DNA of 43,378 nt from Eubacteriales bacterium (GCA_045536155.1 JAZSMZ010000067.1:1-43378); one strand, 5' to 3'; numbered from the stretch's first letter, positions 21,578 to 36,533 are shown. Notes: generated by a model not told the origin, from the sequence alone. Numbers and translations: made by a program.

Positions 21578-23157
21578 TACATAAGGGGGGCCATGAGGCG
21601 CAAAAGAGTTTGTATGACCGAGATGAAAAATCCGCGCTTGCAGTCTTCTGCTTTTATCTCGCGAGATTCATTTTCCGTATCGAAAAAATCCCTTTTGACG
21701 TCCTCTATCACTTTCTCGTCCATAAAGCAGCAGCCGCACTCGAAATGGTGGTAAAGCGAGCGATAGTCTAAATTGACCGTGCCCACCGTTGCCACAGCGT
21801 CGTCCGAAACGAAGAGCTTGGCGTGGCAAAAGCCGTCCTTGTATTCAAATATACGTACGCCGTTTGAGATCAGATCGTGATAATACGAGCGCGTTGTGGT
21901 GTGAACGTACCAATGATCTCCGATTTCGGGCGTGATGATACGCACGTCCACTCCGCGCTTGGCGGCGTATACGAGGCTTTCGGTCATGGCATCGTCGATT
22001 ATGAGATAGGGGGTTGTGATATAGAGATACTTTTGAGATGAGCTGATAATGCTCGTGTACACGTTCTCGCCGACGTATTCGCGATCGAGCGGACTGTCGG
22101 CATAGGGCTGAACGTATCCTTGATGCTCGATATCGCTCTTGCCGGGATAGAATACCGTCAAGTCCTCATCCGCTTTGAAGGGGCATCTCTTTTCGGCACA
22201 GCATATCTGCCACATCTCGAGAAAGATCAGTGTAAGACTCCACGCTCCGTCACCTTTTATCATGACGGCGCTGTCCTTCCACCTGCCGTGCTTTTCAATT
22301 TCGTCGATATATTCGTCGGATATATTGATTCCGCCCGTGAAGGCAACCTTGCCGTCGACAGATACGATCTTTCTGTGGTCGCGGTTATTCGATGCGGTGG
22401 TAAGGAAGGGTCGGAATTTGTTGAACACCATGCACTCGATGCCGTAGCTCGCGAGTATTTTCGGGTAATTACTCGGCAAAAAGAAGAAGCTTCCGATATC
22501 GTCGTATATGATCCTTACCTTGACCCCCTCGGCGGCCTTTCTTACAAGGATGTCGAATATCTCACTCCACATCTTGCCGCCGCAAATTATAAAATACTCG
22601 ATAAAGATGTATTTTTCTGCCTTTTCGAGCTCCTCTTTGAGCCGTTCGAGCTTTTTTACACCCGATGGGAAATACTCGCATTCGCTAGCCGAAAAAACGG
22701 GAAAGGCGCACTTGTTTTGTAAATATCTCATTCTGCCCGCGCTTTTGGGACAGTCCTTTACGGCCTTTTCAAGGCAATCGCCGTTTTTGAAGAAGAGCGG
22801 GCCTATCTCTCTTTCGTTTTCACTGTATTTTTCTTTAAATCTCCGAAGCGACTTTTGGGTCATGAAAAATAGGTAAAGCATACCGCCGAAAAGCGGGAAC
22901 GCCATTATCATAAACACCCAGGCGAGCTTGAATGAGGATTTTTCGCTTTTGTTTACGATGTGAATGCAGACGATTACACTCAGCGCGTTCAAAAAAAGGG
23001 CGATCGTGCTTGACAAAAGGCTTGACGAAAAGATGAGGTATATGATAAATGCAAGCTGGATAGCAAGCAGGAGAATAGTTACGATCCTGCGGCGCATCAA
23101 AAAATACACCCAGCTCTTGTTTTTCACTTCTTTTAGCGTATTTTTCGTTTTTTTCAT
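21577..23157 (-). CDS. cls: Cardiolipin synthase
   Basis: Two N-terminal TM helices and two PLD HKD motifs (HRKIVSVDGKVAFTGGINISDEY and HAKLFVSDDAVATVGTVNLDYRS). ATG at 23157 follows GGAGA. Confidence 0.9.
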   Translation of the reverse strand: MKKTKNTLKEVKNKSWVYFLMRRRIVTILLLAIQLAFIIYLIFSSSLLSSTIALFLNALSVIVCIHIVNKSEKSSFKLAWVFMIMAFPLFGGMLYLFFMTQKSLRRFKEKYSENEREIGPLFFKNGDCLEKAVKDCPKSAGRMRYLQNKCAFPVFSASECEYFPSGVKKLERLKEELEKAEKYIFIEYFIICGGKMWSEIFDILVRKAAEGVKVRIIYDDIGSFFFLPSNYPKILASYGIECMVFNKFRPFLTTASNNRDHRKIVSVDGKVAFTGGINISDEYIDEIEKHGRWKDSAVMIKGDGAWSLTLIFLEMWQICCAEKRCPFKADEDLTVFYPGKSDIEHQGYVQPYADSPLDREYVGENVYTSIISSSQKYLYITTPYLIIDDAMTESLVYAAKRGVDVRIITPEIGDHWYVHTTTRSYYHDLISNGVRIFEYKDGFCHAKLFVSDDAVATVGTVNLDYRSLYHHFECGCCFMDEKVIEDVKRDFFDTENESREIKAEDCKRGFFISVIQTLLRLMAPLM

Positions 23158-23244
23158 TATTTTCTCCATTGGGATAAGGGGGGGTAAAAATGCCGCACGC
23201 AAAAGACAGTCGTGTCGATCGGCGCGCGGCGTCATTTTTATGTA

Positions 23245-24009
23245 TTAATGCTCGGTCATCCATTCGTTGACCGTCATGCCGGTGTTGTAGCGGAAAAAAT
23301 CCTGCATGGATTTGAGGCTTTCAAATCCTGCTGTCTTTGCCGCTTCGGCGGCGGTCATGTCGGAGGCAAGCGAAAGCTTTAAATAGGACAGTCGGACGGC
23401 GTCGATATACGATTTAAGTCCGCGGGAATAGCGCGCGCAAAAGACGACCGACAGATACTTTGCGGTATATCCGAAATGCTCCGCCACCTCAGCGCTCTTG
23501 CAAACGCCCTTCTTTTCGTGGACGTAGTCGCATATTGCACTGCAAAGCTTGAGCTTTTCATTCGAATCGTCATCAACCGGAAGACCGTCGACCTGCAGTA
23601 CCGTGATTATCAGGCGCAAAATGCTGTCAACCGACTCGGCAGGATATTCGGGCAGACTGTAATATTCGAGTATAAGCGAAAGGAGCTGTTCAAAGCGCTC
23701 CGGGTGAGCGGGAATGAACACCTTATGGGCAAGAACGGCGATGTCGGCATCGCTTATCGAGCCTTCGAAGACGATGCGCGTGAAAAAGGTATCCTCGCTG
23801 CACTCGCGAAAGCCGTAGTGCCTGTTCTGGCCGTCAAGCAGCAGTACCTGTCCCGCCTTCAGACGATATTCGCGGTATCCTTCGCAGATATCGAGACTTC
23901 CGCTGTGAAGATAGAGTATCTCGCCTCGTCCCGCTTTTCTTGAAGGATAGAGCATTCCTGCGTGAATGCATCCCTTACCGTATGAAAGAAAATGAATGCC
24001 GTCGTACAA
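23245..24009 (-). CDS. AraC-family transcriptional regulator (cupin plus HTH)
   Basis: C-terminal double HTH (AEVAEHFGYTAKYLSVVF...AAEAAKTAGFESLKSMQDFFRYNTGMTVNEW). TTG start after AAGGGGG. Confidence 0.8.
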   Translation of the reverse strand: MYDGIHFLSYGKGCIHAGMLYPSRKAGRGEILYLHSGSLDICEGYREYRLKAGQVLLLDGQNRHYGFRECSEDTFFTRIVFEGSISDADIAVLAHKVFIPAHPERFEQLLSLILEYYSLPEYPAESVDSILRLIITVLQVDGLPVDDDSNEKLKLCSAICDYVHEKKGVCKSAEVAEHFGYTAKYLSVVFCARYSRGLKSYIDAVRLSYLKLSLASDMTAAEAAKTAGFESLKSMQDFFRYNTGMTVNEWMTEH

Positions 24010-24111
24010 AAAAGCTGCCCCCTTTAATCGATTTTTATATGAAAAAGGTAATTGACGATAGTAAAAAGATGTGCTATAATTATCTGACAGTATGCGAAAG
24101 GAATTTTTTCA

Positions 24112-24651
24112 ATGAAACTGATTATTGCATCCGATATACACGGCTCGTCCTACTATTGCTCGCTCCTTTTGGAGAAGGTGGAAAAAGAAGATCCCGACCG
24201 CCTTTTGCTGCTCGGCGATATACTCTACCACGGTCCGCGCAACGACCTTCCCCGCGATTACGATCCGAAAAAGGTAACCGCATCGCTCAACGCGATCGCC
24301 GACAAGATCCTTTGCGTTCGCGGCAACTGCGAAGCCGAGGTTGACCAGATGATGCTCTCCTTCCCCGTTTTGGCCGATTATGCCTTTCTTTTCGACTCAA
24401 AAACAAAGATCACGGCAACTCACGGGCACAAGCTCGATTCGTTCACTCCTCCGAAATCGGATGAGGTAATCGTATACGGTCACACCCACGTTCCGGTAGA
24501 TCACAAAAGCGATAACGGTGGAAGATTTATAAATCCCGGCTCAGTATCCATTCCAAAGCAGTCGTCGCCCCACAGCTATATCGTCTACGAAGACGGCGTT
24601 TTCACCTGGTACGACCTTGAAAGCGGAGAAAGCTACCTCCCCGAATTCTGA
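24112..24651 (+). CDS. yfcE: YfcE-type metallophosphoesterase (phosphodiesterase)
   Basis: MKLIIASDIHGS...LLLGDILYHGPRN...VRGNCE...THGH...YGHTH motifs. Confidence 0.8.
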   Translation: MKLIIASDIHGSSYYCSLLLEKVEKEDPDRLLLLGDILYHGPRNDLPRDYDPKKVTASLNAIADKILCVRGNCEAEVDQMMLSFPVLADYAFLFDSKTKITATHGHKLDSFTPPKSDEVIVYGHTHVPVDHKSDNGGRFINPGSVSIPKQSSPHSYIVYEDGVFTWYDLESGESYLPEF

Positions 24652-24671
24652 TATCGAATATGCAAATTTTC

Positions 24672-24710
24672 AATGAGGTGTCGCAAACGCGGCACCTCAT
24701 TTTGTTTTTA
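24672..24710. terminator. Bidirectional terminator
   Basis: aatgaggtg...cacctcatt hairpin plus T-run between convergent genes. Confidence 0.7.
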
Positions 24711-25832
24711 TCTTATTATAACCTTGATGCCCATAGCATCGAAATCGGAAAGCATCTTTGCATCGAGTTCGGCACCGTTTGCAACACAAATCATCTTCTT
24801 TACTCTGCCGCCGATGAGCGCAAGCTCATTGGCAAACTGCTTTTTGGACAGATCAAGATGGAATTTCTTGAGCTTTGCGACGAGTGCGATCTTCTTGTCG
24901 AATTTTCCCTCGCCGCCGTTCTTTGCAGCTTCCGCCTTCATGGCCGCATAGATCGAATCGAGCATGGCAACGGTAACGTGAAGCACGTCGGGGCGGTATT
25001 TCTTGATATCGCGGACCGAATTCTTGCCGTTGTCGCCGAATGCGACCGATGCACCTGCCATAAGGGGAGCGAGAATTCCGTAGAACATCTCGTTAATATT
25101 GCCGAGGCGCTGTACCGATACGAACAGATCCTCGCCCGAATATTCAACTGCGGCATGGATCTCGTTAAGCTTGTCAAAGAACTCTTTTTGAGTCATGGTG
25201 GTCATGTTGCCTTCGTCGTCAAAGAATACTGCGCATTCCTTGTCGGGCTTGGGCGCGGGCATGGGCGATGCCTTGCCTATATTATGCAGCGCAAAGCCAA
25301 ATTTTATGAATGTAGCGTAGTCGAGAGTGGTAGATTCGGGCAAAACGTCGTCGCGGTTGCCCGACTGATCGATGAATTTCGCATTGGTATCTACCTGAAT
25401 AAAGAAGCGCACCTTGGGCAGCTCGCTCTGACGTCCTATGTAGTTGCTGCGGCTTCCGCGAGTGAAAACAACGCACTCGCACTTGGCTTCGTTGATCTGC
25501 GCACGCTGTACTTCGGGATCAAGTGCGGGATCGATGTATACAGCACTTGCGGGAACGCACATAGCAGCAAGGTAGCAGGCAACGAGCTCGACCGATTTGT
25601 CGCCTACGACTGCAACTCTCGTACCCTCCATGCCCAGCATCTCAAAGCCTACTCGTGCGGAATCGACAACGTTCTTTATTGCCTCGTGGTTGGCGTGCAT
25701 GTCAACCGAGCCCTTCATGTACATATAGGAAGCTCTGGTGGGATTTTCAAGAGCGTTTTTGCGAACGATCTCATTTATAGAGGATACGGTAAAACCCGTT
25801 CTTACGGATGCATTCTTTTTCTTATCTGCCAT
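24708..25832 (-). CDS. Truncated, P-loop-less paralogue of the adenylate-forming ligase at 12048..13808
   Basis: Collinear with the first 60 percent or so of the FadD-like protein. TSGTTGxxKG is replaced by DDEGNMTTMT, and the protein stops (GIKVIIR*) just before the GYG-TE motif. Confidence 0.6.
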   Translation of the reverse strand: MADKKKNASVRTGFTVSSINEIVRKNALENPTRASYMYMKGSVDMHANHEAIKNVVDSARVGFEMLGMEGTRVAVVGDKSVELVACYLAAMCVPASAVYIDPALDPEVQRAQINEAKCECVVFTRGSRSNYIGRQSELPKVRFFIQVDTNAKFIDQSGNRDDVLPESTTLDYATFIKFGFALHNIGKASPMPAPKPDKECAVFFDDEGNMTTMTQKEFFDKLNEIHAAVEYSGEDLFVSVQRLGNINEMFYGILAPLMAGASVAFGDNGKNSVRDIKKYRPDVLHVTVAMLDSIYAAMKAEAAKNGGEGKFDKKIALVAKLKKFHLDLSKKQFANELALIGGRVKKMICVANGAELDAKMLSDFDAMGIKVIIR

Positions 25833-25929
25833 TTGTCTTTTTTCTCCTTGAATTTGCTTTGTTTATATTTATCCTTATTTTATATTATATACCCAACAAA
25901 AAGGAATGTCAAGCGATTTTCTCTCTCAT

Positions 25930-26772
25930 TTAGCCGTTTTTAGCCTTTTCGGGGCTTTTGCCGAAATGATTCTTATACGCGCGTGAAAACGAATATATCG
26001 ATTGATATCCAACGATCTCGGCCACCTCGGTCACCCTCTTCGTTTTCAGCAGCTCACGCGCCGAAAGCAGGCGTATTTTGTTGCGGTACTGTATCAGCCC
26101 TACCCCGAATTGCTTTTTGAACAGCTTTTCTATGTGGTATTTGTTGTATCCGAACTGTCTTTCAAAATCGTCAAGGCTCATTTTATGTGCCGACTCCGAT
26201 TTGATAAAATCCTTGATGTGGTGCGCGAGTGAATATCCCCCGTCTTCATTGGAAGAGAGCGCATTCTGAAAATTCTCTCCGATTATTATATCGAGTATTT
26301 CAAGGAGCAGACCCCTTTTTTTGATCTGATTTTTGTCGCTTTTGTCACATACGATACGGTAAAATATCTCTAAAAATTCGCTTTTATCCTCGCATTTGAC
26401 AAAGGGACTCGTGTAAAAGGCAAAGGGATCGTGCTCAACGAGCTGCCTTTCGCTTTCGGTAAAGTCAGACGAATCCTTGAACGATATCGGAGTTGCACTG
26501 CTCTCGGGCGAATATTTCAGACTGAAATGAATATGCGGCTGGGAGATCTCGTCACCGTTGCTTTTAATGCTGTGTCTGACGTTCGGATGAAAAAGGATTA
26601 TATCTCCCTCTTTCGCACCGTATTCCCGACCGCCGTACCAAAGCACAAAGCTCCCTCTTTCGACGTAGATAAGCTCAAAATCGAAAAGAACTCTCCGCTT
26701 CATGTAAAAATCCTTCGGCAGAACCGACTCCGTCGCCAGACGTATGTATGGATTTATCGTGTTAATATTCAT
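25930..26772 (-). CDS. AraC-family transcriptional regulator (cupin plus HTH)
   Basis: N-terminal cupin and C-terminal HTH_18-like sequence (VTEVAEIVGYQSIYSFSRAYKNHFGKSP). Divergent from the GH172 gene. Confidence 0.85.
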   Translation of the reverse strand: MNINTINPYIRLATESVLPKDFYMKRRVLFDFELIYVERGSFVLWYGGREYGAKEGDIILFHPNVRHSIKSNGDEISQPHIHFSLKYSPESSATPISFKDSSDFTESERQLVEHDPFAFYTSPFVKCEDKSEFLEIFYRIVCDKSDKNQIKKRGLLLEILDIIIGENFQNALSSNEDGGYSLAHHIKDFIKSESAHKMSLDDFERQFGYNKYHIEKLFKKQFGVGLIQYRNKIRLLSARELLKTKRVTEVAEIVGYQSIYSFSRAYKNHFGKSPEKAKNG

Positions 26773-26874
26773 CGCATCACCGCAAGAAATGTTAAATTAA
26801 TGCCAACAATAGATATTTGTATTATAGCGCAATAATGTTAAAATATCAATAGCTAAATTTTTAAGGAGCAAAAT

Positions 26875-27936
26875 ATGTTAAATTCGCTGACGACCAAAAA
26901 GAATATAAGATCATTTTCTCTTTCCGCCGAAAACATCACAGGTGAAAAGGGCAAGGGCGCTATGTGTCCCGTTGAGGAAGGTACCGCTCACGTTGCGGCG
27001 CGCGAGCTTGGAGTGGGCTGGAAGGTCAACCCCTGCCTTGAGATCGCCGCTAAGGGCAAGCTGACTCTGGCTGACATAAGCGGTCAGGGCGTGATAAAGC
27101 ACATCTGGATCACCGACACCCTCGCCGAGGAAAGATGCCTTATTCTGCGCATCTACTTTGATGGTCATCAAAATCCCGCCGTTGAGGCTCCCCTCTCCGA
27201 CTTCTTTGCGGCGGCAATTCACAACGAATACCGCCAACTGTCGAGCATAGCAGTGTGCGTTAATCCGCAAAAGGCGATGAACTGCTATTTCGAAATGCCC
27301 TATTTCACCGGCTTCAGAATCGAGGTCGAAAACCTCAGCACAAGCTCGGGACATATTTATTATCAGATCGATTGCGAGGAAAAAGAACTGCCCGAGGACA
27401 CTCTCTACTTCCATGCACAGTTCCGCCGTCAGAACCCCATCCCCTACAAAACTCCCTACACCATCCTTGACAACGTCAAGGGCAACGGACATTACGTCGG
27501 TACCTACCTGTTTTGGGGTGTCAAGAGCAACGGCTGGTGGGGCGAGGGCGAGATAAAGTTCTATATCGACGGCGACGGCGAATATCCCACCATCTGCGGC
27601 ACGGGCACCGAGGACTATTTCTGCGGCTCGCACAACTTCGACGTAAAGGGCAAATATACCGAATTCTGTACTCCCTATGCCGGAATGTACAAGGTAGAGC
27701 GCACCGACGAAACGTATCAGGCACAGAGATATTTCAATATGTACCGCTGGCACGTCACCGATCCGATATACTTTAAAAACGATCTCAAGGTAACCATTCA
27801 GGCGCTCGGCTGGCGAAGCGAGGGCAGATACCGCGCGTTAATGGACGATATCTCCTCCGTTGCGTATTGGTATTCGGACACGCTCGACGACGTTTATCCC
27901 ACCTTCCCCACAAAGGACGAGCTTGAACACTGCTGA
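26875..27936 (+). CDS. DUF2961 / glycoside hydrolase family 172-like protein
   Basis: GNGHYVGTYL...WWGEGEIKFYIDGD...PTICGTGTEDYF matches DUF2961 core motifs, from memory. Confidence 0.7.
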   Translation: MLNSLTTKKNIRSFSLSAENITGEKGKGAMCPVEEGTAHVAARELGVGWKVNPCLEIAAKGKLTLADISGQGVIKHIWITDTLAEERCLILRIYFDGHQNPAVEAPLSDFFAAAIHNEYRQLSSIAVCVNPQKAMNCYFEMPYFTGFRIEVENLSTSSGHIYYQIDCEEKELPEDTLYFHAQFRRQNPIPYKTPYTILDNVKGNGHYVGTYLFWGVKSNGWWGEGEIKFYIDGDGEYPTICGTGTEDYFCGSHNFDVKGKYTEFCTPYAGMYKVERTDETYQAQRYFNMYRWHVTDPIYFKNDLKVTIQALGWRSEGRYRALMDDISSVAYWYSDTLDDVYPTFPTKDELEHC

Positions 27937-27950
27937 CAAAACCGACATAA

Positions 27951-27980
27951 AAAGCGCGGATATCAAATCCGCGCTTTTTT
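27951..27980. terminator. Bidirectional terminator
   Basis: aaagcgcggat-atcaa-atccgcgcttt hairpin plus T-run. Confidence 0.8.
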
Positions 27981-27984
27981 GCGT

Positions 27985-28443
27985 TTAATCCTCAAATTGT
28001 TTTCCGAGAAATCCTGCCGCCGTCTGCACAAGCTTCTGCTCGATGTCGTTTGCGGGGACATAAAGCTCGGCCGCAGAGCGAAGGGAGAGCACGCAGCCGG
28101 TGATGTCGCCGTCCGCTATTATGGGCATGGCGCATCCGACCTGCCAGCCGTTTGAATCGTCGTTTGATACCAAAACTGTCTTGTCCTGATTTGCCACGTA
28201 AAGTGCGCGCTTTTCGATGATGCCCTCAAGCTCGGCCGAAAGCCGCTTTTCGTAGAGCTCGCGCTTGGGAAGTCCGGCACATGCGATAACCGCATCGCGG
28301 TCGCATATCGCAACGGCAAACCCTCCCGTTTTGTGCAGCGTTTCCGCATATTGCGCAGCAAATTCGCTTAATTCGCCGATAGGCGAGTATTTTTTGAATA
28401 TCACCTCGCCGTCGCGATCGGTGTATATTTCAAGCGGGTCGCC
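27985..28443 (-). pseudogene. spoVT: 3' fragment of spoVT (from GDPLEI of the AbrB-type domain through the GAF-like domain)
   Basis: GDPLEIYTDRDGEVIFKKYSPIGELSEFAAQYAE...ICDRDAVIA...PIIADGDITGCVL...TAAGFLGKQFED is collinear with B. subtilis SpoVT, from memory. The first 30 codons or so are missing. Confidence 0.8.
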
Positions 28444-30210
28444 GCCACAGATAACATTGACACGAAAAACCTTATCGCGCCGCTTTTTAGCGCGTTGGGC
28501 TGCCACGATTGTATAATCATCGTCGGCTCTTTCGATATTTTCCGTGCCTAAATTAAAATTTACAGCTTCTTCGCTTTCTTCTCCATTCTTAAAATGCTCT
28601 ATTGTACCGGTGCGAAGAAGTTCATCGATATCGGCTTTAAGTTTGACATCGATATGATCTTCATAAACTATTATCCTATCAATAATCAAATTGATGTCGT
28701 TTCTGTCAAGTTTATCTTTTTCAATAATAGCATTAAATAAATCTATGACCGTCTTTGACACGCGATTAACTCTTATAATTGTATTGGCAGCGTCGGATAC
28801 CATAACAAGTTGATTGGTAAGACCTTCAATTCTATTGTTCGCCTCTTCGATTAATGCATCGTAGGTTTCTTCCAGTATCTTTGCATTGTCCTTATGCCTT
28901 ATCATGTCGCGTGTCTTTTGACGAGTCAAGGTCATCAATTCTTCTCTTTCGGCATCAATCTGTCGACTAAGCTCTTCGGCAGCTATCTTACTGCTTTCAG
29001 TTGCTCTTTGCTCATGACTCAACACCTCTTTTAAAATGTTCATCATACTCGAAGAATTATCTCTTACACGCGCTATATATTCTTTAAGCACGGTATCAAG
29101 AAACCTGGCTTTGATATGATGAGAAGTACAACCGGCACGTCCTCTTACGTGATACGTTCCGCATGTATATGCTTCTTCAAGATCCTTACGGCTCATGGCA
29201 AACATATGATTGCCGCAATCACCGCAAAAAAGATATCCGGAGTAAGTATTGTCATACTTTTTCACACCGCGATAAGCGTTTTTTGTGCGTTGTTTAAGAA
29301 GTTCTTGCGTAGTAGCAAAAACTCGGTAATCAACAATTGCCTCGTGATGGTTTTCGAATACAATATGCTCACTTTTGTCCAACGGCACAGCATTGCCGTT
29401 GATTTTTTTACGGTGATATTTTCTTTCGCGCAACGTGCCGATATAGAAATCATTATTTAAAATTTCAGAAACGGTGATAATGCTCCACTGTTCTCTGACC
29501 TTAGCTCTATACTCATCTCCTGCAGCTTCTTTGCGTGCCTTTTCTCTCATTCTCGGTGTGGGAATATGTTTGTCGGTTAAATAATTTGCAATTCTTTTAT
29601 AACCCCAGCCATCAACATAAAGCTTAAATATCGTTCTGACAACTTCGGCAGCCGGCTCGTCAACCTCAAAGATCATTTTCTTGGAATTTGTAATTACATA
29701 TCCGTACGGCACAGAACAGATCCATTCCCCTTTGGCCTGACGGCTTGCAATAACATCGGATACCTTTCGGCTGGCATCGGTTACCGGCATTTCATTTACA
29801 AAAAAGTAGAGCTTAATCTTCAGCCAGTCATCGGTATGATCCTGATAGTAATCCACTCCATCACCAATTGCAATAATTCTGATATCATGTTCAGCAAGAT
29901 CTTCAAATTCGGCAAGCCCCTTTCCCGTACGTCTGGAAAAACGGCTTAGATCTTTAACGATGAGTATATCATACTCGCCGCCGAGCAATTTGGGGCGAAG
30001 TTTTTGATAGTAATCGGGACGCTGCTCAAAAGTATATCCCGAATGATCTCTATCCTCGTAATAGTCAACCGTACTTGTCGGAAAATGAAGTTTACAATAT
30101 TCGCTGATTATTGCTTTTTGATTTTCAATACTTGTATTGTCCTTATTCAATTCAAGATCAACAGATATTCGCGTATATGCGGCTATCTTCAATTCATTCA
30201 ACAACATCAT
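27985..30210 (-). CDS. Large serine recombinase ORF reading in frame into the 3' part of spoVT (741 aa as it stands)
   Basis: The N-terminal 589 aa or so carry resolvase catalytic motifs (AAYTRISV, DRDHSGYTFERP, VKDLSRFSRR), a recombinase domain, a Zn ribbon (CGDCGNH...CGTYH...C) and a coiled coil. The last 152 aa are SpoVT-like. Confidence 0.9.
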   Translation of the reverse strand: MMLLNELKIAAYTRISVDLELNKDNTSIENQKAIISEYCKLHFPTSTVDYYEDRDHSGYTFEQRPDYYQKLRPKLLGGEYDILIVKDLSRFSRRTGKGLAEFEDLAEHDIRIIAIGDGVDYYQDHTDDWLKIKLYFFVNEMPVTDASRKVSDVIASRQAKGEWICSVPYGYVITNSKKMIFEVDEPAAEVVRTIFKLYVDGWGYKRIANYLTDKHIPTPRMREKARKEAAGDEYRAKVREQWSIITVSEILNNDFYIGTLRERKYHRKKINGNAVPLDKSEHIVFENHHEAIVDYRVFATTQELLKQRTKNAYRGVKKYDNTYSGYLFCGDCGNHMFAMSRKDLEEAYTCGTYHVRGRAGCTSHHIKARFLDTVLKEYIARVRDNSSSMMNILKEVLSHEQRATESSKIAAEELSRQIDAEREELMTLTRQKTRDMIRHKDNAKILEETYDALIEEANNRIEGLTNQLVMVSDAANTIIRVNRVSKTVIDLFNAIIEKDKLDRNDINLIIDRIIVYEDHIDVKLKADIDELLRTGTIEHFKNGEESEEAVNFNLGTENIERADDDYTIVAAQRAKKRRDKVFRVNVICGGDPLEIYTDRDGEVIFKKYSPIGELSEFAAQYAETLHKTGGFAVAICDRDAVIACAGLPKRELYEKRLSAELEGIIEKRALYVANQDKTVLVSNDDSNGWQVGCAMPIIADGDITGCVLSLRSAAELYVPANDIEQKLVQTAAGFLGKQFED

Positions 30211-30310
30211 ATTTCTCCATAAAAATTATTAACATCATTGTAACTAATATTTTTACGTTTGTCAATCATTTTGAGTAATAAAAACAATAACTAACGGTTA
30301 ACAATAATTG

Positions 30311-30338
30311 AAAAATGCCTTAAGTTTATCTTAAGGCA
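30311..30338 (-). terminator. Rho-independent terminator between the 73-aa gene and the recombinase
   Basis: tgccttaag-ataaa-cttaaggca followed by TTTTT on the minus strand. Confidence 0.65.
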
Positions 30339-30356
30339 CGTTTTGTTTGTATTGTA

Positions 30357-30578
30357 TTACATTGATTTGTCATCAACATCAATGGCATGCTTCAAAATAT
30401 CTTTTGTTAATGTTGTCAAATCTCCGTCACCTGACTTAAATACTGCAACTCGATACTTTTTCATTTTATATTCTGCATATATCGGTTTTAATTCGTCCTG
30501 TAATTTCGAATCATAGGCCTCCGATTTTGTAAGCCATATCGAAACATATTTATTTTCATCGTGTATAATCATTTCCAT
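30357..30578 (-). CDS. Hypothetical 73-aa protein
   Basis: ATG at 30578 lies 8 nt after AGGGAGG. No recognisable family. Its position next to the recombinase makes a directionality-factor role conceivable but unsupported. Confidence 0.5.
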   Translation of the reverse strand: MEMIIHDENKYVSIWLTKSEAYDSKLQDELKPIYAEYKMKKYRVAVFKSGDGDLTTLTKDILKHAIDVDDKSM

Positions 30579-30833
30579 ATGGCTCACCTCCCTTGATTAC
30601 AATTTTTAACTGATGTATATATAATTATTCATTCATCTGATTGTAGCAACCGTTGTTTTTTTAATATTTTACTTTGATATATTGATGAAAACTTTTATCA
30701 TCCCAAACTTTGCTCATTTCTCTTTATTGGAAATTATGCTATTATGCGCATGTTCGACAATCCTTCATTTGATAATATTATACTCTTTTTCGAAGAAGAT
30801 CCCTTTGTGCAATACAATATAGCGCCATTTAAT

Positions 30834-31952
30834 TTAACTGAAAAACGCTTTTTCCCATTTTTCGAAGCTTATAGTTTCGAACCGTACCCTTTCACCCAAA
30901 TATTGTTCGAGCACCTCTTTTTGGTAATCAAAGCAAACAACCACTCCTTCCATATCATAAATCTCCAAGCTCCTTTTGAAGCGTTTGATACGCGGCCAAT
31001 CGAAGGTATGCGCAAACAATACCGGAAGTCCATCCTCGGTAAATGCATCATTTTCGATTGCGGAAGATGGATTATGTTCGCAAAGATCGGTTTTTAAAAT
31101 CTCATTCAGCTGTTTGTTCAAATACGTGTCGCAAAGTAATTGAATCAGTCGTTCACCTTTACGGTCATTGGTCAGAAAAAAGAAATGCTCATAGCAATCT
31201 TCATCTATTGCATACAACGTGTTTGTGGCAACTGTAAGAAGCTTATACGCCGTTTCTATATTATTGGCAAGCAGTATCGCCTTTCCTTTATTCGGAAGAT
31301 ACAGACCATATTGCCGCTGCAAACAACAGTTATTCATCAAAAATACTTTTGTTCGCATTTCAGCATTATTCGACCACTTCATCAATGAACCGCCAAGATT
31401 GTATACGACAAATAAATCATCTGCCGAAAGCAGCACCCCCACGGAACGTGCACCGGAGATCTTTACAGCTTCTTGACCTATTGACTTGATCTCACGTGAA
31501 TTAAAGAAAAAAGGTTCATCGATCTGCAATGCGGTTGATAGGGGTATGGGCGTAAATACATTAGGCTTTTCGTCGCGGTAAACGTGCACACCTGCATTGA
31601 TCATAGTAACCGTAGTTTCTGCTATACGACGCAATCGAATCCGACGAGTAATCTCACTTTTGAGATGATTTGTGTCGTTGTCGCCGGTTAACCAGAATTG
31701 AAACCTATCAGGATTTTTTTCGAGCAGCAGCGTCTTACCGTTTTTTGAAAGACGAAATGCTCGATACTTATCAGCGTAGTATGTATGAATCATTTTTTGT
31801 TTTTTTAGTTCTTTAATCAAATTCATTTTGTATCTCTCTCCACCGGTCAATCTGGGCAACTGGTCAACCGGGAATTCGCCGCACATGGCGATTAAAGAGA
31901 GTATAAGATATCGTATTGAGTTATCCATGGGCATAGGTATTTGTTTTTTCAT
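30834..31952 (-). CDS. Hypothetical 372-aa protein
   Basis: GGAGGA RBS. The N-terminal 80 aa or so look like a winged-helix domain (IRYLILSLIAMCGEFPVDQLPRLTGG...). The rest is unrecognised. Confidence 0.6.
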   Translation of the reverse strand: MKKQIPMPMDNSIRYLILSLIAMCGEFPVDQLPRLTGGERYKMNLIKELKKQKMIHTYYADKYRAFRLSKNGKTLLLEKNPDRFQFWLTGDNDTNHLKSEITRRIRLRRIAETTVTMINAGVHVYRDEKPNVFTPIPLSTALQIDEPFFFNSREIKSIGQEAVKISGARSVGVLLSADDLFVVYNLGGSLMKWSNNAEMRTKVFLMNNCCLQRQYGLYLPNKGKAILLANNIETAYKLLTVATNTLYAIDEDCYEHFFFLTNDRKGERLIQLLCDTYLNKQLNEILKTDLCEHNPSSAIENDAFTEDGLPVLFAHTFDWPRIKRFKRSLEIYDMEGVVVCFDYQKEVLEQYLGERVRFETISFEKWEKAFFS

Positions 31953-32117
31953 AGCTGTTTTCCTCCATTATTTTTTCTTACCGCTACCTCCAATCATTTC
32001 GGTAAAAAAATCGAGTATGAGACAAGCATTTTTCCCTGCAAATAAGCGTTTTTCAGATCTTTTTACCGTCCTGCCAAATTGATTGTTTTAACTTTTGCGG
32101 TTTTGGTATCCCTCAAT

Positions 32118-32879
32118 TTAGCTTTTCGAACGCTCGGAAAGCCATATCAAAAATTGTTCTTTTCTCATAATTAGTATTCTTGTTAAATCCTTTTCGCCAA
32201 GCACTGTTGTATGATATGCGTCGCAATTAAGTCCGCTATCATCCTTTAGAAAAAAAGCCGCCACAACATCAAGAAGCTTTTTTTGCTCTGTGTTATCATA
32301 GTCAAGCACTCGTCCGATACCGAGGGTTTTGTCATATTCATGAATGAAGCAAACAGCACATTCATCAAAATGCTGTATCGTATGAGACTGTACATACTGC
32401 TCTAAAATACGATATGCAGGATCGATCAGATACTCTGAACTCTTCCACGATTTAGCTTTTGGAACAAGTCCGGGAAATGTCAATTCAACGATCCCGTCAT
32501 ATTCGTTCACCGACATATCTAACTGCTCACCAGCTTTAATCAGATAATCCCGAGAGCGGATATCTGTTGCAAGATAGAGCAAATGTCTCAATCTTCGCGT
32601 GATCTGCTCACTCTTAAATGCCGATTCGCTCAATAAATAATTGCTGTTATTGGGAAGGCATTTGGGCAAATGTGGTGTTATAAGTTCGAGCCACAGTATA
32701 ATATTTTTCATCTCTTTACAAATACTTTCGATATTTTTCTTCACCGTAAATAGTGTGTTATTTGTCTCGAAAGACCCCACGTCTGATGCTTTTGGGAATA
32801 AGCCTTCATCACTATCATTAAGCAGCTCAATTTTTCCACATGATATTAATTTGTCATTGTTCTTTTTTCTTTCGCACAT
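32118..32879 (-). CDS. Hypothetical 253-aa protein; the C-terminal half has a RusA-like D-x-D-N...K...D...DD pattern
   Basis: GAGAGG RBS. VLDYDNTEQKKLLDVVAAFFLKDDSG resembles the RusA resolvase core (DLDNLQKAAFDALT...DD). This is a weak, motif-level match only. Confidence 0.55.
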   Translation of the reverse strand: MCERKKNNDKLISCGKIELLNDSDEGLFPKASDVGSFETNNTLFTVKKNIESICKEMKNIILWLELITPHLPKCLPNNSNYLLSESAFKSEQITRRLRHLLYLATDIRSRDYLIKAGEQLDMSVNEYDGIVELTFPGLVPKAKSWKSSEYLIDPAYRILEQYVQSHTIQHFDECAVCFIHEYDKTLGIGRVLDYDNTEQKKLLDVVAAFFLKDDSGLNCDAYHTTVLGEKDLTRILIMRKEQFLIWLSERSKS

Positions 32880-33104
32880 ATAAAAAGCCTCTCGCTATAT
32901 TTCTTCATACAAATTATATCATATATAGAAAAATGACACAAGGAAAGCGCCGAGTAACTTTCAAGTATGTTTTGGGCAAATTATTTTCTTGATTGGTTTT
33001 TCATGATTTATAGATTAATGGAAGAATATAAAACAAAAAAAAATCATGCACATTTGTACATGATTTTCATAATCAATATTGCCTTTTCAGCACCTTGCCG
33101 AGGC

Positions 33105-33761
33105 TTATTCAAACTGTTGATCATCCGCACAGTTTTCAGACAAAAAAGTTCCATAGATGTCTTCTTCCGCTCTATGACGCGCTTTCACAGCATCTTCATA
33201 ATTGCTGTAGGAACCAAAATACATAAGTTTTCCTTTGAACTTCAATCTAACGTGCCACTTCTGATTTCTCTTATGCCAATATACTCCTCTGGTGCCGCTT
33301 GTATTGGCTGCTGTCAGTTTCATATCCTGTATTTTTGATATCTGTGTACCGCCGATAAAACCCGCGGCCTCCTTCATTGCCAACGGAGCTGTTTCTTTCA
33401 AACACTTTTGACACATTCGTTCTTTTTTATCAGAAAGCGATCCTGTGGTTCGTAGCACAATTTCTCCACATTCGCAACGGCATTCCCATAATGTATGTAG
33501 TTGATTCCCTCTTTTTCGTTTTTCGTTTGCCTTTCTGATGACAGTCAGTTTGCCAAAAATCTGTCCTGTAAGATCTGGAGATTTCAAACAACCGCAATTG
33601 GTGACATGGCCGCTTTTAAGATTCCCGGTTGTAACAATATGTGTTTTTCCACAATCACAAAGGCAATTCCAACGTCTATGGCCTTTTTCATTGGACGGCA
33701 TCAACTCCTGAACAACAAGTTTACCAAACCTTTGTCCGATTAGATTTTCATATTCACGCAT
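33105..33761 (-). CDS. AP2-domain DNA-binding protein with N-terminal Cys-rich repeats (phage-type)
   Basis: Two copies of GQxFGKLxV...W.C.C.CG...L.SG...CGC, then GVYWHKRNQKWHVRLKFKGKLMYFGSYSNYEDAVKARHRAE, an AP2/integrase-type DNA-binding domain. Confidence 0.7.
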   Translation of the reverse strand: MREYENLIGQRFGKLVVQELMPSNEKGHRRWNCLCDCGKTHIVTTGNLKSGHVTNCGCLKSPDLTGQIFGKLTVIRKANEKRKRGNQLHTLWECRCECGEIVLRTTGSLSDKKERMCQKCLKETAPLAMKEAAGFIGGTQISKIQDMKLTAANTSGTRGVYWHKRNQKWHVRLKFKGKLMYFGSYSNYEDAVKARHRAEEDIYGTFLSENCADDQQFE

Positions 33762-33877
33762 TTATATGCACTCCTATTTGCCATCCTCGCCCTCATATTG
33801 TGCCAATTTACGTTTTTATAAAAGCAACTATCAAATAATTACTCTTTGGCCAATGTTAAATTAAATTTTGGTTGGTA

Positions 33878-34447
33878 TCATTCAAAATGATACACGCCAA
33901 GATAAGGATTAAAAGGACTTCCACTCGCGCGTCTGGTAAGACCTTCACCGGCAATTACATCCGGATATCCAAAGCCTGCGCCATCAATAAAAAACCATAC
34001 GACTCTGTCAACTACAACATCTTCTTCATCGTAAACATTGCGAAGAAGAATAATCTTTTCTTCATCTTTAACCGCTGCGACCGCCTCGGCAAAAGTATCA
34101 TATGTAACATCTCCGATTTGCGCAGCAGGTCCCTCGGTATCCGACTCGGTTTCTACAGGATCTGTCACAACAACAATCGGCTCTGTTTCCTCTACCGTTG
34201 TTTCCTCTGCAGTTGTCTCTTCGACAGTTGTTTCTTCTGCAGTTGTCTCTTCGATAGTTGTCTCTTCTACAGTTGTCTCTTCTGCAGTTGTTTCCTCGAC
34301 AGTTGTTTCTTCTACAGTTGTTTCTTCATAATCCGTAGAAACAGGGGTTTCAGTTGTATTTACATCAACATCAATATCAGTTACCGCGCATCCTGCGGCA
34401 ACAATTACAAATACAACAGTTAAAATAAGTGCAAATATTTTTTTCAT
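33878..34447 (-). CDS. Lipoprotein with an (EETTx)9 linker and a C-terminal module shared with the giant surface protein
   Basis: Signal peptide plus lipobox IVAAGC. The start overlaps the VanZ stop (ATGA). AQIGDVTYDTFAEAVAAVKDEEKIILL is similar to repeated modules in ORF 36534..43378. Confidence 0.7.
   Translation of the reverse strand: MKKIFALILTVVFVIVAAGCAVTDIDVDVNTTETPVSTDYEETTVEETTVEETTAEETTVEETTIEETTAEETTVEETTAEETTVEETEPIVVVTDPVETESDTEGPAAQIGDVTYDTFAEAVAAVKDEEKIILLRNVYDEEDVVVDRVVWFFIDGAGFGYPDVIAGEGLTRRASGSPFNPYLGVYHFE
34184..34327 (-). repeat. 15-nt tandem repeat, about 9.6 copies, encoding EETT(V/A/I)
   Basis: A near-identical unit (plus strand ttc-n-acagttgt-y-tc) is repeated head to tail inside the lipoprotein CDS. 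Confidence 0.85.
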
Positions 34448-34956
34448 TTTACAGTCTTTCCATTATAAAATTTCTGATTCGATGAGTGAATTGATGTATG
34501 AGAACTTTTTTGAATCTTTAATGTCACAAGTAATTCTCCTATTAATACTCCGCATATCACACCGAAAAAATCAATGATCACATCCGAAACACTGCTTGTT
34601 CGCCCTGTAAAACTCTGGATAAACTCGTCAATAACCGCAACGAGCAATCCACAAAGAAGCGGCAAGGAAATATGATGGTTGCCTTTTGTATAACAAATCA
34701 AAGTTATCATTCCTGCAACCGAAAATCCCAGCAAGGCAAATTCAAGAATGTGTGATGCTTTTCGAACAAAATAATTGATATCCTCGGTAGAGATTGTGTC
34801 GTTCGAGTCAAATATCGATTCGATTAAATCCACCAGACCCTTGCTCTGTTCGTATGATTCCTCTCCGTTTTTCAATGAGTTAGAAATAATAAATACTATT
34901 GAAAACACGGTAAGGATAACAAACACGAACGCACATATTTTTATATGTTTTTTCAT
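34444..34956 (-). CDS. VanZ-family membrane protein
   Basis: FVRKASHILEFALLGF...DEFIQSFTGRTSSVSDVIIDFFGVICG is typical of VanZ-like proteins, with 4 TM helices. Confidence 0.75.
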   Translation of the reverse strand: MKKHIKICAFVFVILTVFSIVFIISNSLKNGEESYEQSKGLVDLIESIFDSNDTISTEDINYFVRKASHILEFALLGFSVAGMITLICYTKGNHHISLPLLCGLLVAVIDEFIQSFTGRTSSVSDVIIDFFGVICGVLIGELLVTLKIQKSSHTSIHSSNQKFYNGKTVK

Positions 34957-35275
34957 GGGTTTCTCCTATCATCGGATATGACACGAAAAATTTCTCACGC
35001 CATCTTATTGACATTGAAAATGTAATACTGGCTTAATGAACGCAATCCCAGTGTTATAAATATGTAATCGGTCATCGAAAAATATGTTTTAAGCTATTAT
35101 ATTTTTTCTGCCCTGTCAGAACATACTTAAAGGGCATATTATATTCGTTGTTAAGTGGCTCCTTATCTTTTGTAAGCAAACTAATAAGGAGACTTGTTTA
35201 TTCGCGTATGTGCCAACTAATCATTATGATCATATTAAAAAGATCACATCTGTGAATTGATATATAGGAGCTATT

Positions 35276-35310: not shown

Positions 35311-35410
35311 ACTCCTATCCATTGATTGCAACGCTATTTTTTCATATGCGTATATAGATCAATTAAACCATTGACATCCTGACGAACGCCGTCAGGAAAT
35401 CCAACGGTTT

Positions 35411-36516: not shown

Positions 36517-36533
36517 TCTATTGCATCCTCCTT

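Follow-up and report, generated by a model that had tools for sequence, protein, structure and literature searches.

A recombinase–SpoVT open reading frame at the junction of an integrative island inside spoVT

Here we report that, judged from sequence comparisons, a 741-aa open reading frame in an Oscillospirales-type Clostridia genome is the attR junction of an integrative island of at least 14.9 kb lying inside the sporulation gene spoVT. The ORF (27985..30210, minus strand) is found in a 43,378-nucleotide stretch of DNA from a Eubacteriales bacterium, hereafter called the window. Its first part encodes a complete large serine recombinase (LSR); from there the reading frame runs on into SpoVT residues ~31–182 and ends at the spoVT stop codon. 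A preliminary description of this DNA had proposed that spoVT is split by an LSR element whose recombinase ORF runs in frame into the 3' half of the gene, and this was borne out by an empty site in the related genome L087 (breakpoint 28443), by split genes at loci L055, L068, and L084, and by a free attP. We consider it likely that the island is mobile and site-specifically inserted and that its effect is a reversible, tolerated inactivation of spoVT. The window is organized as follows.

1..27948, no strand assigned: host chromosome flank with ordinary housekeeping genes (Pfam; collinear with L087 at 83% nucleotide identity and with locus L004 at 91–95%)
25930..26772, minus strand: AraC regulator, near spoVT (Pfam)
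26875..27936, plus strand: GH172, near spoVT (Pfam)
27949..27980, minus strand: intrinsic terminator of spoVT, AAAAAAGCGCGGAT..ATCCGCGCTTTTT (direct sequence reading)
27985..28440, minus strand: intact 3' part of the host spoVT, codons ~32–182 and stop (SpoVT_C, TIGR02851, 2w1t; L087 homology starts at 28443; GC 0.54)
28416..28463, minus strand: attR, 48 bp, GTGTCAATGTTATCTGTGGCGGC-GA-CCCGCTTGAAATATACACCGATC, element arm P joined to host arm B' (P-arm conservation, matching attL/attP in relatives)
28439..28440, minus strand: GA, inferred to be the crossover dinucleotide, positions 1 and 2 of the Asp codon in G-D-P (centre of the attP palindrome; no biochemical data)
28441..30210, minus strand: LSR proper, about 590 codons, with a C-terminal extension ending ..RDKVFRVNVICG (Pfam, NCBIfam, PHROG, 9dxh; GC 0.40)
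30237..30265, minus strand: putative sigma-A-type recombinase promoter, TTGACA-N17-TACAAT (consensus match only)
30311..30339, minus strand: terminator-like hairpin after the small ORF, dividing it from the recombinase transcription unit (sequence; analogous hairpins in L001, L005, and L007)
30357..30587, minus strand: conserved ~75-aa ORF (homologues upstream of the recombinase in relatives)
30588..43378, minus strand: variable element cargo (Pfam, PHROG, NCBIfam)
36534..43313, minus strand: 2259-aa LRR_5/Flg_new surface protein within the cargo (Pfam/PHROG/NCBIfam)

The far end of the element, attL with spoVT codons 1–33, lies outside the window.

Pfam places Resolvase (PF00239) at residues 10–163 of the ORF, Recombinase (PF07508) at 187–308, and Zn_ribbon_recom (PF13408) at 323–379, giving the order catalytic domain, recombinase domain, Zn ribbon with coiled coil, and C-terminal extension. 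The catalytic-domain motifs YTRISV (S16) and VKDLSRFSRR were unchanged in 18 of 18 relatives, and the Zn-ribbon cysteines C329, C332, C350, and C361 were invariant across relatives. The recombinase part therefore has what defines an LSR, namely a resolvase-type catalytic domain with a nucleophilic Ser and conserved Arg residues, and a recombinase domain with a four-Cys Zn ribbon and embedded coiled coil, in agreement with the preliminary description; the coiled coil was inferred from an alignment with SprA, without computation. We found a match to a PHROG 'integrase' family (7e-84), and a PDB comparison returned SPbeta SprA/YokA (9dxh) as the nearest solved structure and also TnpX. The best NCBIfam recombinase matches, CcrB, CcrC, CcrA, and XisF, all fell far under their cut-offs, and the lineage shares only about 25–30% identity with any characterised member. 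No record matched the 741-aa protein exactly.

The remainder of the ORF is SpoVT. Pfam SpoVT_C covers residues 613–740 (E = 1.9e-37), profile positions 23/30–180 of the 180 in NCBIfam TIGR02851 (spore_V_T) correspond to residues 583/590–740, and residues 24–177 of B. subtilis SpoVT (PDB entry 2w1t) align with residues 583–740 (E = 1e-30). These matches support the earlier claim that the last ~152 aa are collinear with SpoVT to the C terminus. The start had been placed at the last strand of the AbrB-type domain, which needs correction: the retained part begins at G31-D32-P33 and includes the last two strands of that domain and the entire GAF-like SpoVT_C domain. The ORF does not qualify as an intact SpoVT product, as its TIGR02851 score is 150 bits against a cut-off of 235.9, and the intact layout of an N-terminal AbrB-type swapped-hairpin DNA-binding domain followed by a GAF-like C-terminal domain is absent because the N-terminal part is missing. 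When the window was searched by tblastn with the SpoVT N terminus, the single match was 28443..28345 (residues 31–63), and the first ~30 codons of spoVT, already reported as missing, were not found in the window, including 15 kb of element-side sequence. The switch in composition noted previously was also recovered, with GC changing from 0.54 in the tail to 0.40 in the recombinase part exactly at the junction.

Of the 120 top protein clusters, 116 have this in-frame junction, as do 78 of the 80 best among at least 508 GTDB hits (species loci from Oscillospirales, including Ruminococcus flavefaciens), indicating that the fusion is not due to chance. Conservation of this architecture across 78 of 80 loci and over 100 protein clusters could mean that the chimera itself has been selected, for example as a recombinase regulated by the GAF-like domain or as an altered SpoVT brought in by the element. 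The tail forms a complete folded domain, and the integrated and free recombinases differ only in their C terminus, both of which would fit a functional fusion. The preliminary description had held that homologous recombinases carrying the same tail elsewhere would refute an insertion in favour of a true domain fusion. That condition is superficially met (more than 100 clusters), but it fails as a refutation, because the tails are derived from their hosts and are uncoupled from the recombinases that carry them.

In L087, spoVT is uninterrupted in the same downstream neighbourhood, and homology to the window begins exactly at 28443; no homology was found between the cargo of the window element and the DNA upstream of spoVT in that genome. 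At L055, L068, and L084, both halves of spoVT are present around ~11-kb elements. Identities of recombinase and tail were uncoupled across 105 proteins (Spearman 0.05), with 619 protein pairs in which the recombinases were at least 93% but the tails less than 70% identical, and dS in the tails was far above that in the recombinases. Recombinases 98% identical to one another were found in hosts with 74–82% identical flanks and with unrelated cargo. The recombinases of the window and L004 are 99% identical, whereas the host flanks are only ~91% identical, which argues for recent mobility. In R. flavefaciens, the element is present in strain 007c and missing from strain 17, and the flanks of the two strains are 99.6% identical; empty and occupied sites thus coexist within species, and exactly reconstituted spoVT alleles exist within species. 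In empty-site genomes, the DNA that forms the tail belongs to a normal, uninterrupted spoVT, and homology to those genomes starts at the junction. The tails are therefore each host's own spoVT 3' half, and their independence from the recombinase indicates a conserved integration site. Two properties of sporulation-gene intervening elements are met here: a coding sequence interrupted by an attL/attR-bounded element (spoVT is split at codon 32, with attR in the window), and an element encoding its own serine recombinase (the gene abuts attR, and the att arms are co-conserved; activity is inferred).

An alignment of both junctions had been suggested as the way to define the att core. Direct reading gave attL and attR in L055, L068, and L084. 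A matching attP, also reconstructed from attL and attR, is intact on the free contig L096, and the recombinase ORF of that contig ends just after it. The attP site is a 48-bp near-palindrome with outer arms GTGTCAATGTT and AACATTGACAC, symmetric about GA at its geometric centre (12 + 11 bp each side), and lies within the last ~10–30 codons of the recombinase gene, where its core repeats codons E-G-D-P of spoVT, in frame with that gene. The attB site is the highly conserved GGC-GAC-CC (G-D-P) stretch at spoVT codons 31–33. Arm P (GTCAATGTTATCAGT) is kept in about 60 loci, the B' side follows the host, and the codon preceding GGC at the junction is specific to the element. Polymorphisms between attL and attR in L084 confine the crossover to GACCC, and the sequence of L052 departs straight after GGCGAC. 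At the opposite-orientation loci L005 and L006, the core is inverted, with TC in place of GA. The LSR hallmark of imperfectly palindromic att sites of ~40–50 bp with a polarity-setting central dinucleotide is met, with the exact crossover dinucleotide inferred.

Recombination, which we infer to take place at the central GA, swaps the 3' ends of the recombinase gene and spoVT. The integrated recombinase gains SpoVT ~34–182 as a tail, yielding the 741-aa ORF, and at the other junction spoVT codons 1–33 run into the recombinase's short native tail. For the island in the window, the predicted far junction has spoVT codons 1–33 joined at GGCGACCC to the P' arm (..GGCGACCCG-TCACAGAYAACATTGAC-like), and the spoVT stub there would carry a promoter of the GTATA-N17-CATACTA type. 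Because attP lies inside the recombinase ORF in the frame of spoVT, the in-frame fusion is automatic and not an evolved domain fusion; the recombinase–SpoVT "fusion protein" is a by-product of integration. A selected chimera is also contradicted by the host specificity of the tails, by their identity with parts of ordinary spoVT genes at empty sites, by opposite-orientation elements that read antisense into the spoVT 5' end, and by the persistence of recombinases with broken tails in at least 19 contigs. We regard that explanation as largely refuted and give it almost no credence.

Together with its relatives, the window island belongs to an apparently undescribed family in which one LSR lineage occupies the same spoVT site in many gut and rumen Clostridia; our literature search found no prior description of a spoVT-targeting element. 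The conserved module consists of the recombinase, the ~75-aa upstream ORF, and attP, and the rest is interchangeable cargo. In the window, the cargo includes a 372-aa ORF, DUF6100, an HNH-like ORF, VanZ, PqqD, a ScmC-like 241-aa ORF, and the 2259-aa surface protein, and no relaxase was detectable in the 15 kb of the element with Pfam, PHROG, or NCBIfam. An integrative mobilizable element would pair a site-specific integration module with a relaxase/oriT in the absence of full conjugation machinery. Some relatives carry Rep or relaxase genes, the relaxases adjoining the recombinase (NikA-like and Relaxase in L001-3, L091, and L115; Mob_Pre in L005 and L006), and L115 also carries a giant surface protein similar to that of the window. 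A search with the attP pattern gave no matches in IMG/VR and a single match among JGI metagenomes (241 million records). Two candidates for other states of the element were rejected: the short unfused relatives P0116 and P0118 are not excised forms and belong to opposite-orientation elements running antisense into the spoVT 5' end, and P0248 (48 aa) is not an attL stub and corresponds to the C-terminal end of broken tails. Two records labelled 'Bacteriophage sp.', with recombinases ~50% identical, were uninformative: one is truncated where its contig ends, and the other is a further chromosomal fusion.

A spoVT 5' stub within 10 kb upstream of the recombinase was absent in most loci and seen only in L055, L068, and L084, which we attribute to elements exceeding 10 kb. 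It could nonetheless be argued that the window island is a fossil, immobilised after loss of its far end and 5' stub, with spoVT permanently dead in this lineage and possibly a paralog elsewhere. There is no stub in 15 kb of element-side sequence, the stretch common to the window element and the near-identical element at L004 is limited to the recombinase-proximal 6.7 kb (28441..35192), no same-species empty site was found for the window, and decay is documented in another species. The missing stub is to be expected, as other elements of the family are also longer than 10 kb; moreover, the recombinase, attR arm, and tail are all intact in the window, and the excess of recombinase over flank identity relative to L004 points to recent mobility. 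We therefore hold the fossil explanation to be unlikely.

The ~75-aa ORF is the sole gene that travels with the recombinase across the family: at least 66 of 88 loci have a homologue upstream of the recombinase, at a median distance of 139 nt. It had no match in Pfam, PHROG, NCBIfam, PADLOC, or PDB, a homologue search returned only one near-identical protein, and a single-sequence AlphaFold model reached a pLDDT of 58. It remains a candidate directionality or regulatory factor, with its function unassigned. We infer that the recombinase is expressed from the vegetative sigma-A-type promoter, whose −10 region (TACAATGATGT) looks like the att arm motif. The strict extended −10 pattern was present upstream of the recombinase in 44 of 66 loci, and an arm-like motif, at 30232–30242 in the window, in 46 of 92, against a background of ~0.0025 per 160 nt. 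Consensus matching, the only method used here, found no sigE/K/F/G consensus upstream of the recombinase. A weak motif upstream of the small ORF, GAATA-N17-YAAAAAT (30602–30630), is present only in the window's clade and could, on a consensus match alone, be a weak forespore-type promoter. At empty sites, the spoVT promoter GTATA-N17-CATACTA fits the sigma-G consensus. We rejected a model in which a conserved directionality gene at attL is transcribed from this promoter, as the three complete elements have nothing in common there.

The gene spoVT is expressed in the forespore, controlled by sigma-G (B. subtilis) or sigma-F/G (C. difficile), and both C. difficile and B. cereus require it to form mature spores (PMC5061766, PMC3789822), whereas all described targets of intervening elements are mother-cell genes (PMC5595907, PMC10747680). 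The literature thus upholds the earlier remark that spoVT, as a forespore gene, is unlike the known targets, and the requirement that an intervening element's target act in the mother cell, where excision is not inherited, is not met. Integration would split and inactivate spoVT, with function regained only through precise excision, also inferred; it probably switches the gene off reversibly.

The preliminary description had likened the element to skin and SPbeta. This is reasonable as a working analogy, but programmed excision has not been demonstrated, and some of the evidence speaks for plain tolerated inactivation. If the likeness were complete, precise excision in the forespore would rebuild spoVT during sporulation, the small ORF would be a sporulation-controlled directionality factor, and the element would be lost from spores or survive as a circle that reintegrates after germination. 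The general architecture is shared with elements known to interrupt sporulation genes (PMC5595907, PMC10747680). In the strict-junction set, which comprises GTDB representatives, P0104 loci, L004, and the window, none of the 53 complete tails is broken, and at L062, L069, and L073, where recombinase and host seem to co-diverge, tail dN/dS is 0.03–0.06; both would fit selection keeping spoVT reconstitutable, and hence regulated excision. The reconstituted alleles within species and the free attP form, both only indirect evidence, point the same way, as do the Rep and relaxase genes with which some relatives could keep or move a circle and the weak forespore-type motif in the window's clade. However, the split gene is not always maintained: in one species the tail was inactivated three times independently, by a 16-bp duplication, a premature stop codon, and the loss of 1 bp, and the attL core of L068 is mutated. 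Because tail dS is far above recombinase dS, most tail conservation is older than integration, and with elements younger than host divergence, tail dN/dS is mostly uninformative about selection after integration. Also against a developmental program are the sigma-A-type promoter of the recombinase without a sporulation-sigma consensus upstream, the lack of a conserved gene at the attL end, which faces the spoVT promoter, and the single attP contig among 241 million metagenome records. Finally, excision in the forespore is heritable, so the element would cure itself in each spore generation unless it reintegrated, for which there is no evidence. Programmed excision therefore appears unlikely, though less so than the other explanations opposed to ours.

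No excision product of the window's species was found, and the reconstituted window SpoVT is absent from the protein collection, where the closest intact allele is 91% identical. For the species of L033, none of the retrieved samples was listed for both the empty and the occupied allele, so that there is no evidence of within-sample switching. A heritable germline switch remains a speculative option to which we attach little weight: excision would restore spoVT in cells committed to sporulation, the circle would be kept in the spore, and reintegration would follow germination, with directionality set through the recombinase C terminus. The free form would have a native tail of 7–27 aa and the integrated form a dimerising, possibly ligand-binding SpoVT GAF domain, and the small conserved ORF may contribute. 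Returning to tolerated, reversible inactivation, which we favour, a stochastic or conditional on/off state of sporulation at the population level, tolerated in gut and rumen lineages, seems more likely than obligatory developmental excision.

These data extend sporulation-gene intervening elements to a forespore regulator, for which the rationale of a disposable mother cell cannot apply. The interruption of a germline sporulation gene is directly testable, as R. flavefaciens 007c and strain 17 form a cultured occupied/empty pair. Sporulation is tied to the transmission of gut Firmicutes (PMC8340488), and, since gut and rumen Oscillospirales commonly carry this family, integration may be a frequent reversible route to sporulation loss or phase variation. 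The locus is also an annotation trap: a 740-aa 'recombinase family protein' without any spoVT would bias sporulation predictions based on gene content. The recombinase and its 48-bp attP, with an attB in some of the most conserved Firmicutes DNA, would be useful genetic tools for Clostridia that are hard to engineer, and the core inversion is a natural example of reversed integration polarity that is relevant to such tools.

Like skin in sigK, SPbeta in spsM, vfbin in spoVFB, gin in gerE, and yin in yabG (PMC4191935, PMC5499854, PMC5595907, PMC5025042, PMC10747680), the spoVT element is a mobile or prophage-like island within a conserved sporulation gene, bounded by attL and attR, with an LSR at one end and a gene rebuilt only by precise excision. 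SPbeta SprA is the nearest solved recombinase, and the spoVT element, like gin, is non-viral. It differs from these five in having a forespore (sigma-G/sigma-F) target instead of mother-cell targets whose genome is discarded, in lacking an identified sporulation-controlled directionality factor, in placing attP inside the recombinase ORF so that reciprocal in-frame chimeras arise, in its gut and rumen Oscillospirales hosts, which are neither Bacillus nor Clostridium, and in the decay of the split gene in at least one species.

Active lysogeny and phage regulatory switches have reportedly been treated by Feiner et al. 2015. The comK prophage of Listeria (A118/phi10403S family, serine integrase; PMC3556126) likewise interrupts a regulatory gene in a heritable genome, and its active lysogeny, reversible excision without loss of the element, is proposed to combine gene function with persistence (PMC10747680). 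In contrast, the spoVT element is not accompanied by a phage and offers no evidence of reversible excision and reintegration, and the process affected would be sporulation and not competence or phagosome escape. With integrative mobilizable elements and transposons that use LSRs, exemplified by SCCmec CcrA/B/C, Tn4451 TnpX, Tn5397 TndX, and Anabaena XisF, the element shares a small integration module with swappable cargo, but its recombinase is of another lineage and has a different, very specific target.

In the Myxococcus phage Mx8 intP/intX system and in the integration-dependent immunity of mycobacteriophages, attP lies within a gene and integration alters the C terminus of the protein. 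These systems use tyrosine integrases, and it is the integrase or repressor that is truncated or altered. The spoVT element resembles them in that a crossover within an element ORF gives free and integrated forms with different C termini. It differs in the outcome, any regulatory use of which is unproven: a serine recombinase receives an entire 150-aa domain from the host, and the tail of the recombinase passes to the host stub.

The recombinase and the SpoVT remnant of the window share a single reading frame:

27985..30210, minus strand: chimeric recombinase-SpoVT ORF, 741 aa, read from the sequence

Pfam placed Resolvase at residues 10-163 of the product, Recombinase at 187-308, Zn_ribbon_recom at 323-379, and SpoVT_C at 613-740 (E=1.9e-37). 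Residues 583/590-740 aligned to positions 23/30-180 of 180 in NCBIfam TIGR02851 (stage V sporulation protein T), with a score under the family cut-off solely because the N terminus is missing, and residues 583-740 aligned to residues 24-177 of the B. subtilis SpoVT structure 2w1t. These searches bore out all the factual statements that the preliminary description had made about the ORF. The SpoVT part is, as described, collinear to the C terminus; it starts at G31-D32-P33, so the last two AbrB-type strands are kept and not only one. Searched by tblastn with the SpoVT N terminus, the whole window gave a sole match at 28443..28345, and the first ~30 spoVT codons are therefore absent from the window, in agreement with the earlier claim. 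The reported composition change was measured at the junction, with a GC content of 0.54 in the tail (the SpoVT-derived part) versus 0.40 in the recombinase part. Elsewhere in the window, a tRNA-Lys(UUU) in the host flank (17400-17475, plus strand) is the only RNA gene, and a 669-aa ORF (1086-3095, plus strand) joins the N terminus of an ECF-type sigma factor to a long C-terminal extension.

It had been argued that the same SpoVT tail on homologous recombinases elsewhere would indicate a true domain fusion. Such tails were indeed seen: the four-domain architecture is present in 116 of the 120 best homologue clusters (67-99% identity), which come from Clostridia MAGs and are annotated only as "recombinase family protein." The inference of a fusion, however, failed in four tests. 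First, among 105 proteins split at the junction, recombinase and tail identities were uncoupled (Spearman 0.05), and 619 pairs combined recombinases at least 93% identical with tails less than 70% identical. At the DNA level, the tail dS was often 10-30 times that of the recombinase (e.g. 1.7 versus 0.05). Recombinases 98% identical were found in hosts with 74-82% identical flanks and unrelated cargo, and different recombinase lineages can occupy the identical site in related hosts. Second, a relative with an uninterrupted spoVT (contig L087) encodes an intact 182-aa SpoVT (cluster P0121), 91% identical to the reconstructed window protein. The genes that follow it (GH172, AraC, AMP-binding, metallophosphoesterase, HTH_18, and PLD) reproduce the window's left flank exactly, and nucleotide homology (83% over 7.6 kb) starts at window position 28443, which is codon 31. 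Third, three complete elements (L055, L068, and L084) have spoVT codons 1-33, complete with start codon and the region before it, ~11 kb further upstream and oriented the same way. Fourth, the spoVT allele reconstituted from the cultured strain R. flavefaciens 007c exactly matched RefSeq WP_019679518.1; this allele is found in another cultured strain, R. flavefaciens 17 (AFNE01), at an empty site, and the flanks of the two strains there are 99.6% identical. Together, these data confirmed that spoVT is split by a large-serine-recombinase element and that what recurs at the junction is a conserved site of integration rather than a fusion of domains. The tail directly follows the recombinase in 78 of 80 loci from GTDB species representatives, the best 80 of at least 508 GTDB matches.

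Three further cases were recorded. Two 21.7-kb contigs of MAG RGIG3903 (L027 and L047) are 100% identical across the locus and are probably an assembly or binning duplicate. MAG RGIG6172 has two different recombinase-tail junctions (L012 and L028), which could reflect a strain mixture or two spoVT-like targets. A 716-aa recombinase-SpoVT fusion is encoded at 6657-8759 of GenBank MT836658.1, a record from human faeces deposited under the title "UNVERIFIED: Bacteriophage sp."; rather than a phage, this is most likely a piece of a bacterial chromosome.

The ends of the complete element L084 read ..CGGGAGGGCGACCCG|TCACAGACAACATTGACAC (attL) and GTGTCAATGTTATCAGTGAGGGTGACCCC|CTCGAAATATAC (attR); the element arms mirror each other almost perfectly as inverted repeats, and the core between them repeats the spoVT codons E-G-D-P. 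In ~60 loci, the element-side arm GTCAATGTTATCAGT is conserved, even with recombinases only 55% identical, the codon preceding GGC varies by element (GGC, GAC, GAG, AAC, or GTG), and the sequence beyond GGCGACCC tracks the host. An attP pattern search of 241 million metagenome records found only one contig with an unrecombined site (L096, 1-12455, JGI Ga0082212_10009613), GTCAATGTTATCAGT-AACGGC-GA-CCCGAC-ACAGATAACGTTGAC, through which the recombinase ORF passes to a stop immediately after (..VNVISNGDPTQITLT*). Genes for a rolling-circle Rep (PF23343), a T4-type RNA ligase, and a second large serine recombinase lie on the same contig, which has no spoVT; it may represent either a free form that replicates or one element nested inside another.

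From sequence comparison we infer that the crossover lies at or adjoining the GA of the Asp codon (window 28439-28440). The inference rests on arm symmetry (12 + 11 bp each side), on L084 attL/attR polymorphisms that bracket the crossover to GACCC, and on one locus (L052) that diverges directly after GGCGAC. With attP located within the recombinase ORF and in frame with spoVT, integration necessarily yields two chimeric ORFs: the recombinase continued by SpoVT 34-182, as in the 741-aa ORF, and SpoVT 1-33 joined to the native recombinase tail of 7-27 aa, which in L084 ends ..REGDPSQTTLTPEYAFYNAMRDIAERLHIKT*. Integration thus accounts for the in-frame fusion as its by-product. In a small clade (P0116, P0118, and P0119; loci L005 and L006), the core is inverted, ..AGTGTCGGG-TC-GCCC.., and the element sits in spoVT in the opposite orientation, its 622-634-aa recombinases running antisense through spoVT codons 33-1 (L005 11779-11900; L006 11743-11865). 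The clade offers a natural example of polarity being set by the asymmetric central bases.

In the window, the element extends from 28441 to beyond 43378, and the DNA right of the junction gave no match to the L087 DNA upstream of spoVT. Its features besides the recombinase include the following:

30357..30587, minus strand: conserved ORF of ~75 aa with family-wide homologues and its own terminator-like hairpin
36534-43313, minus strand: giant surface protein, 2259 aa, with BspA-type LRR_5, Flg_new, and protease-related domains

The ~75-aa ORF alone is conserved together with the recombinase: it lies just upstream in at least 66 of 88 loci, and it had no known-family match in Pfam, PHROG, NCBIfam, PADLOC, or PDB. 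Cargo differs among close relatives, and the near-identical element of a sister locus (L004) is collinear with the window only up to 35192. The window cargo comprises DUF6100, an HNH-like ORF, VanZ, PqqD, a ScmC-like ORF, and the 2259-aa LRR/Flg_new protein. Other loci carry NikA-like and relaxase genes (L001-3, L091, and L115) or Mob_Pre (L005), and the complete 11-kb element L084 (cargo 560-9400) carries a RecQ-like helicase, a DprA-like protein, a PD-(D/E)XK transposase-family protein, a partial second serine recombinase, and fragments of cas4, cas7, and csd1. The family is best described as an integration module mobilising varied islands, several of them mobilizable.

Within the window cargo, the giant surface protein gene has a host-like GC content of 0.50 versus 0.38 in the rest of the island; a 3709-aa protein with the same kinds of domains is encoded in L115 (1-4380), on the distal side in both elements. 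The PqqD-family peptide chaperone and the adjoining 241-aa ORF (35411-36396, minus strand), weakly similar to the SynChlorMet cassette protein ScmC, look like a RiPP-type cassette remnant. Between VanZ and PqqD, non-coding DNA (35034-35192, minus strand) is weakly similar (E=8.5e-5) to residues 70-137 of a 335-aa protein encoded two genes upstream of spoVT in L087; the similarity ends exactly where L004 collinearity does, which may reflect an internal rearrangement and is unexplained.

Forespore expression of SpoVT, under sigma-G (sigma-F/G in C. difficile), sets it apart from the known targets, as the preliminary description rightly held. B. cereus cannot complete sporulation without SpoVT, and C. 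difficile needs it to form heat-resistant spores (PMC5061766, PMC3789822). The empty-site spoVT promoter, GTATA-N17-CATACTA, fits the sigma-G consensus. Since SpoVT is needed for sporulation and spoVT is split, late sporulation should be blocked unless the gene is rebuilt. Several observations indicate that rebuilding is possible: the att arms are intact, a free attP exists (L096), and exactly reconstituted alleles occur alongside occupied ones in 3 of 9 species tested. In Ca. Apopatosoma intestinale, from the human gut, contigs with an empty site numbered at least 24 and those with an occupied one at least 12.

All 53 complete tails in the strict-junction set (GTDB representatives, P0104 loci, L004, and the window) are intact, and in one group (L062, L069, and L073) recombinase and host appear to co-diverge, with tail dN/dS of 0.03-0.06. 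These data keep alive a rival explanation, that excision is programmed in the forespore and rebuilds spoVT there, which we consider unlikely. Against it, the tail in Ca. Apopatosoma intestinale, where intact-tail and empty-site alleles are also common, has three independent inactivating lesions among 97-99% identical sequences (at least 19 contigs):

L091 ~9.9 kb and L092 ~5.3 kb: 16-bp tandem duplication
L095 ~2.8 kb: nonsense mutation, TAT>TAA
L094 ~4.4 kb: 1-bp deletion

Moreover, the L068 attL (600-640) has the core GGCGCC instead of GGCGAC (GA to GC), and its spoVT stub carries E30M; excision would probably be blocked by the mismatch with attR, which may leave this copy locked in. Next to attL, where spoVT transcription enters, the three complete elements have no gene in common. 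Finally, the recombinase promoter is of the sigma-A type and conserved among relatives, and no sporulation-sigma consensus was found upstream of the recombinase:

30232-30265 region, minus strand: recombinase promoter, TTGACA-N17-TACAAT, consensus match only

Weighing this evidence against an obligatory developmental programme together with the evidence that rebuilding is possible, we favour reversible insertional inactivation of spoVT, tolerated in these lineages.

At and after the promoter -10, a TACAATGTTGTTA-like sequence resembles the att arm and recurs in the same region in 46/92 loci, an enrichment inflated by shared ancestry; in some loci the sequence occurs a second time, inverted, close to the ribosome-binding site (e.g. 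ATAACATTGACA in L067). The recombinase may bind and autoregulate its own promoter. Upstream of the ~75-aa ORF, 14 nt before its annotated start, GAATA-N17-(C/T)AAAAAT (30602-30630, minus strand) is common to 13 of 61 unique upstream regions, every one of them from the window's clade; it bears a weak resemblance to a sigma-F/G-type promoter and is not a proper match.

An attP inside an ORF that changes the protein C terminus on integration is familiar from tyrosine-integrase phages, Mx8 and mycobacteriophages; we know of no such case for a serine recombinase gaining a whole host domain. The closest characterised recombinase in a PDB sequence search, a distant one, was SPbeta SprA; matches to CcrB/C/A and XisF fell far under their family cut-offs, and identity to annotated phage or plasmid recombinases was ~30% at most. 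Literature full text gave no relevant account linking spoVT with a serine recombinase, intervening element, or integrase, and the targets named in recent papers are only sigK, spsM, spoVFB, gerE, and yabG. Our results thus confirm the earlier observation and support its interpretation. The novelty lies in the target, which is a sporulation regulator of the germline, in how broad the family is, and in the reciprocal C-terminus swap. The proposed resemblance to skin and SPbeta holds in that the element, for which sporulation-timed excision and a sporulation-controlled directionality factor are only hypothetical, works like these and the other sporulation-gene intervening elements, vfbin, gin, and yin, but it fails in one feature common to them, as spoVT is not a mother-cell gene.
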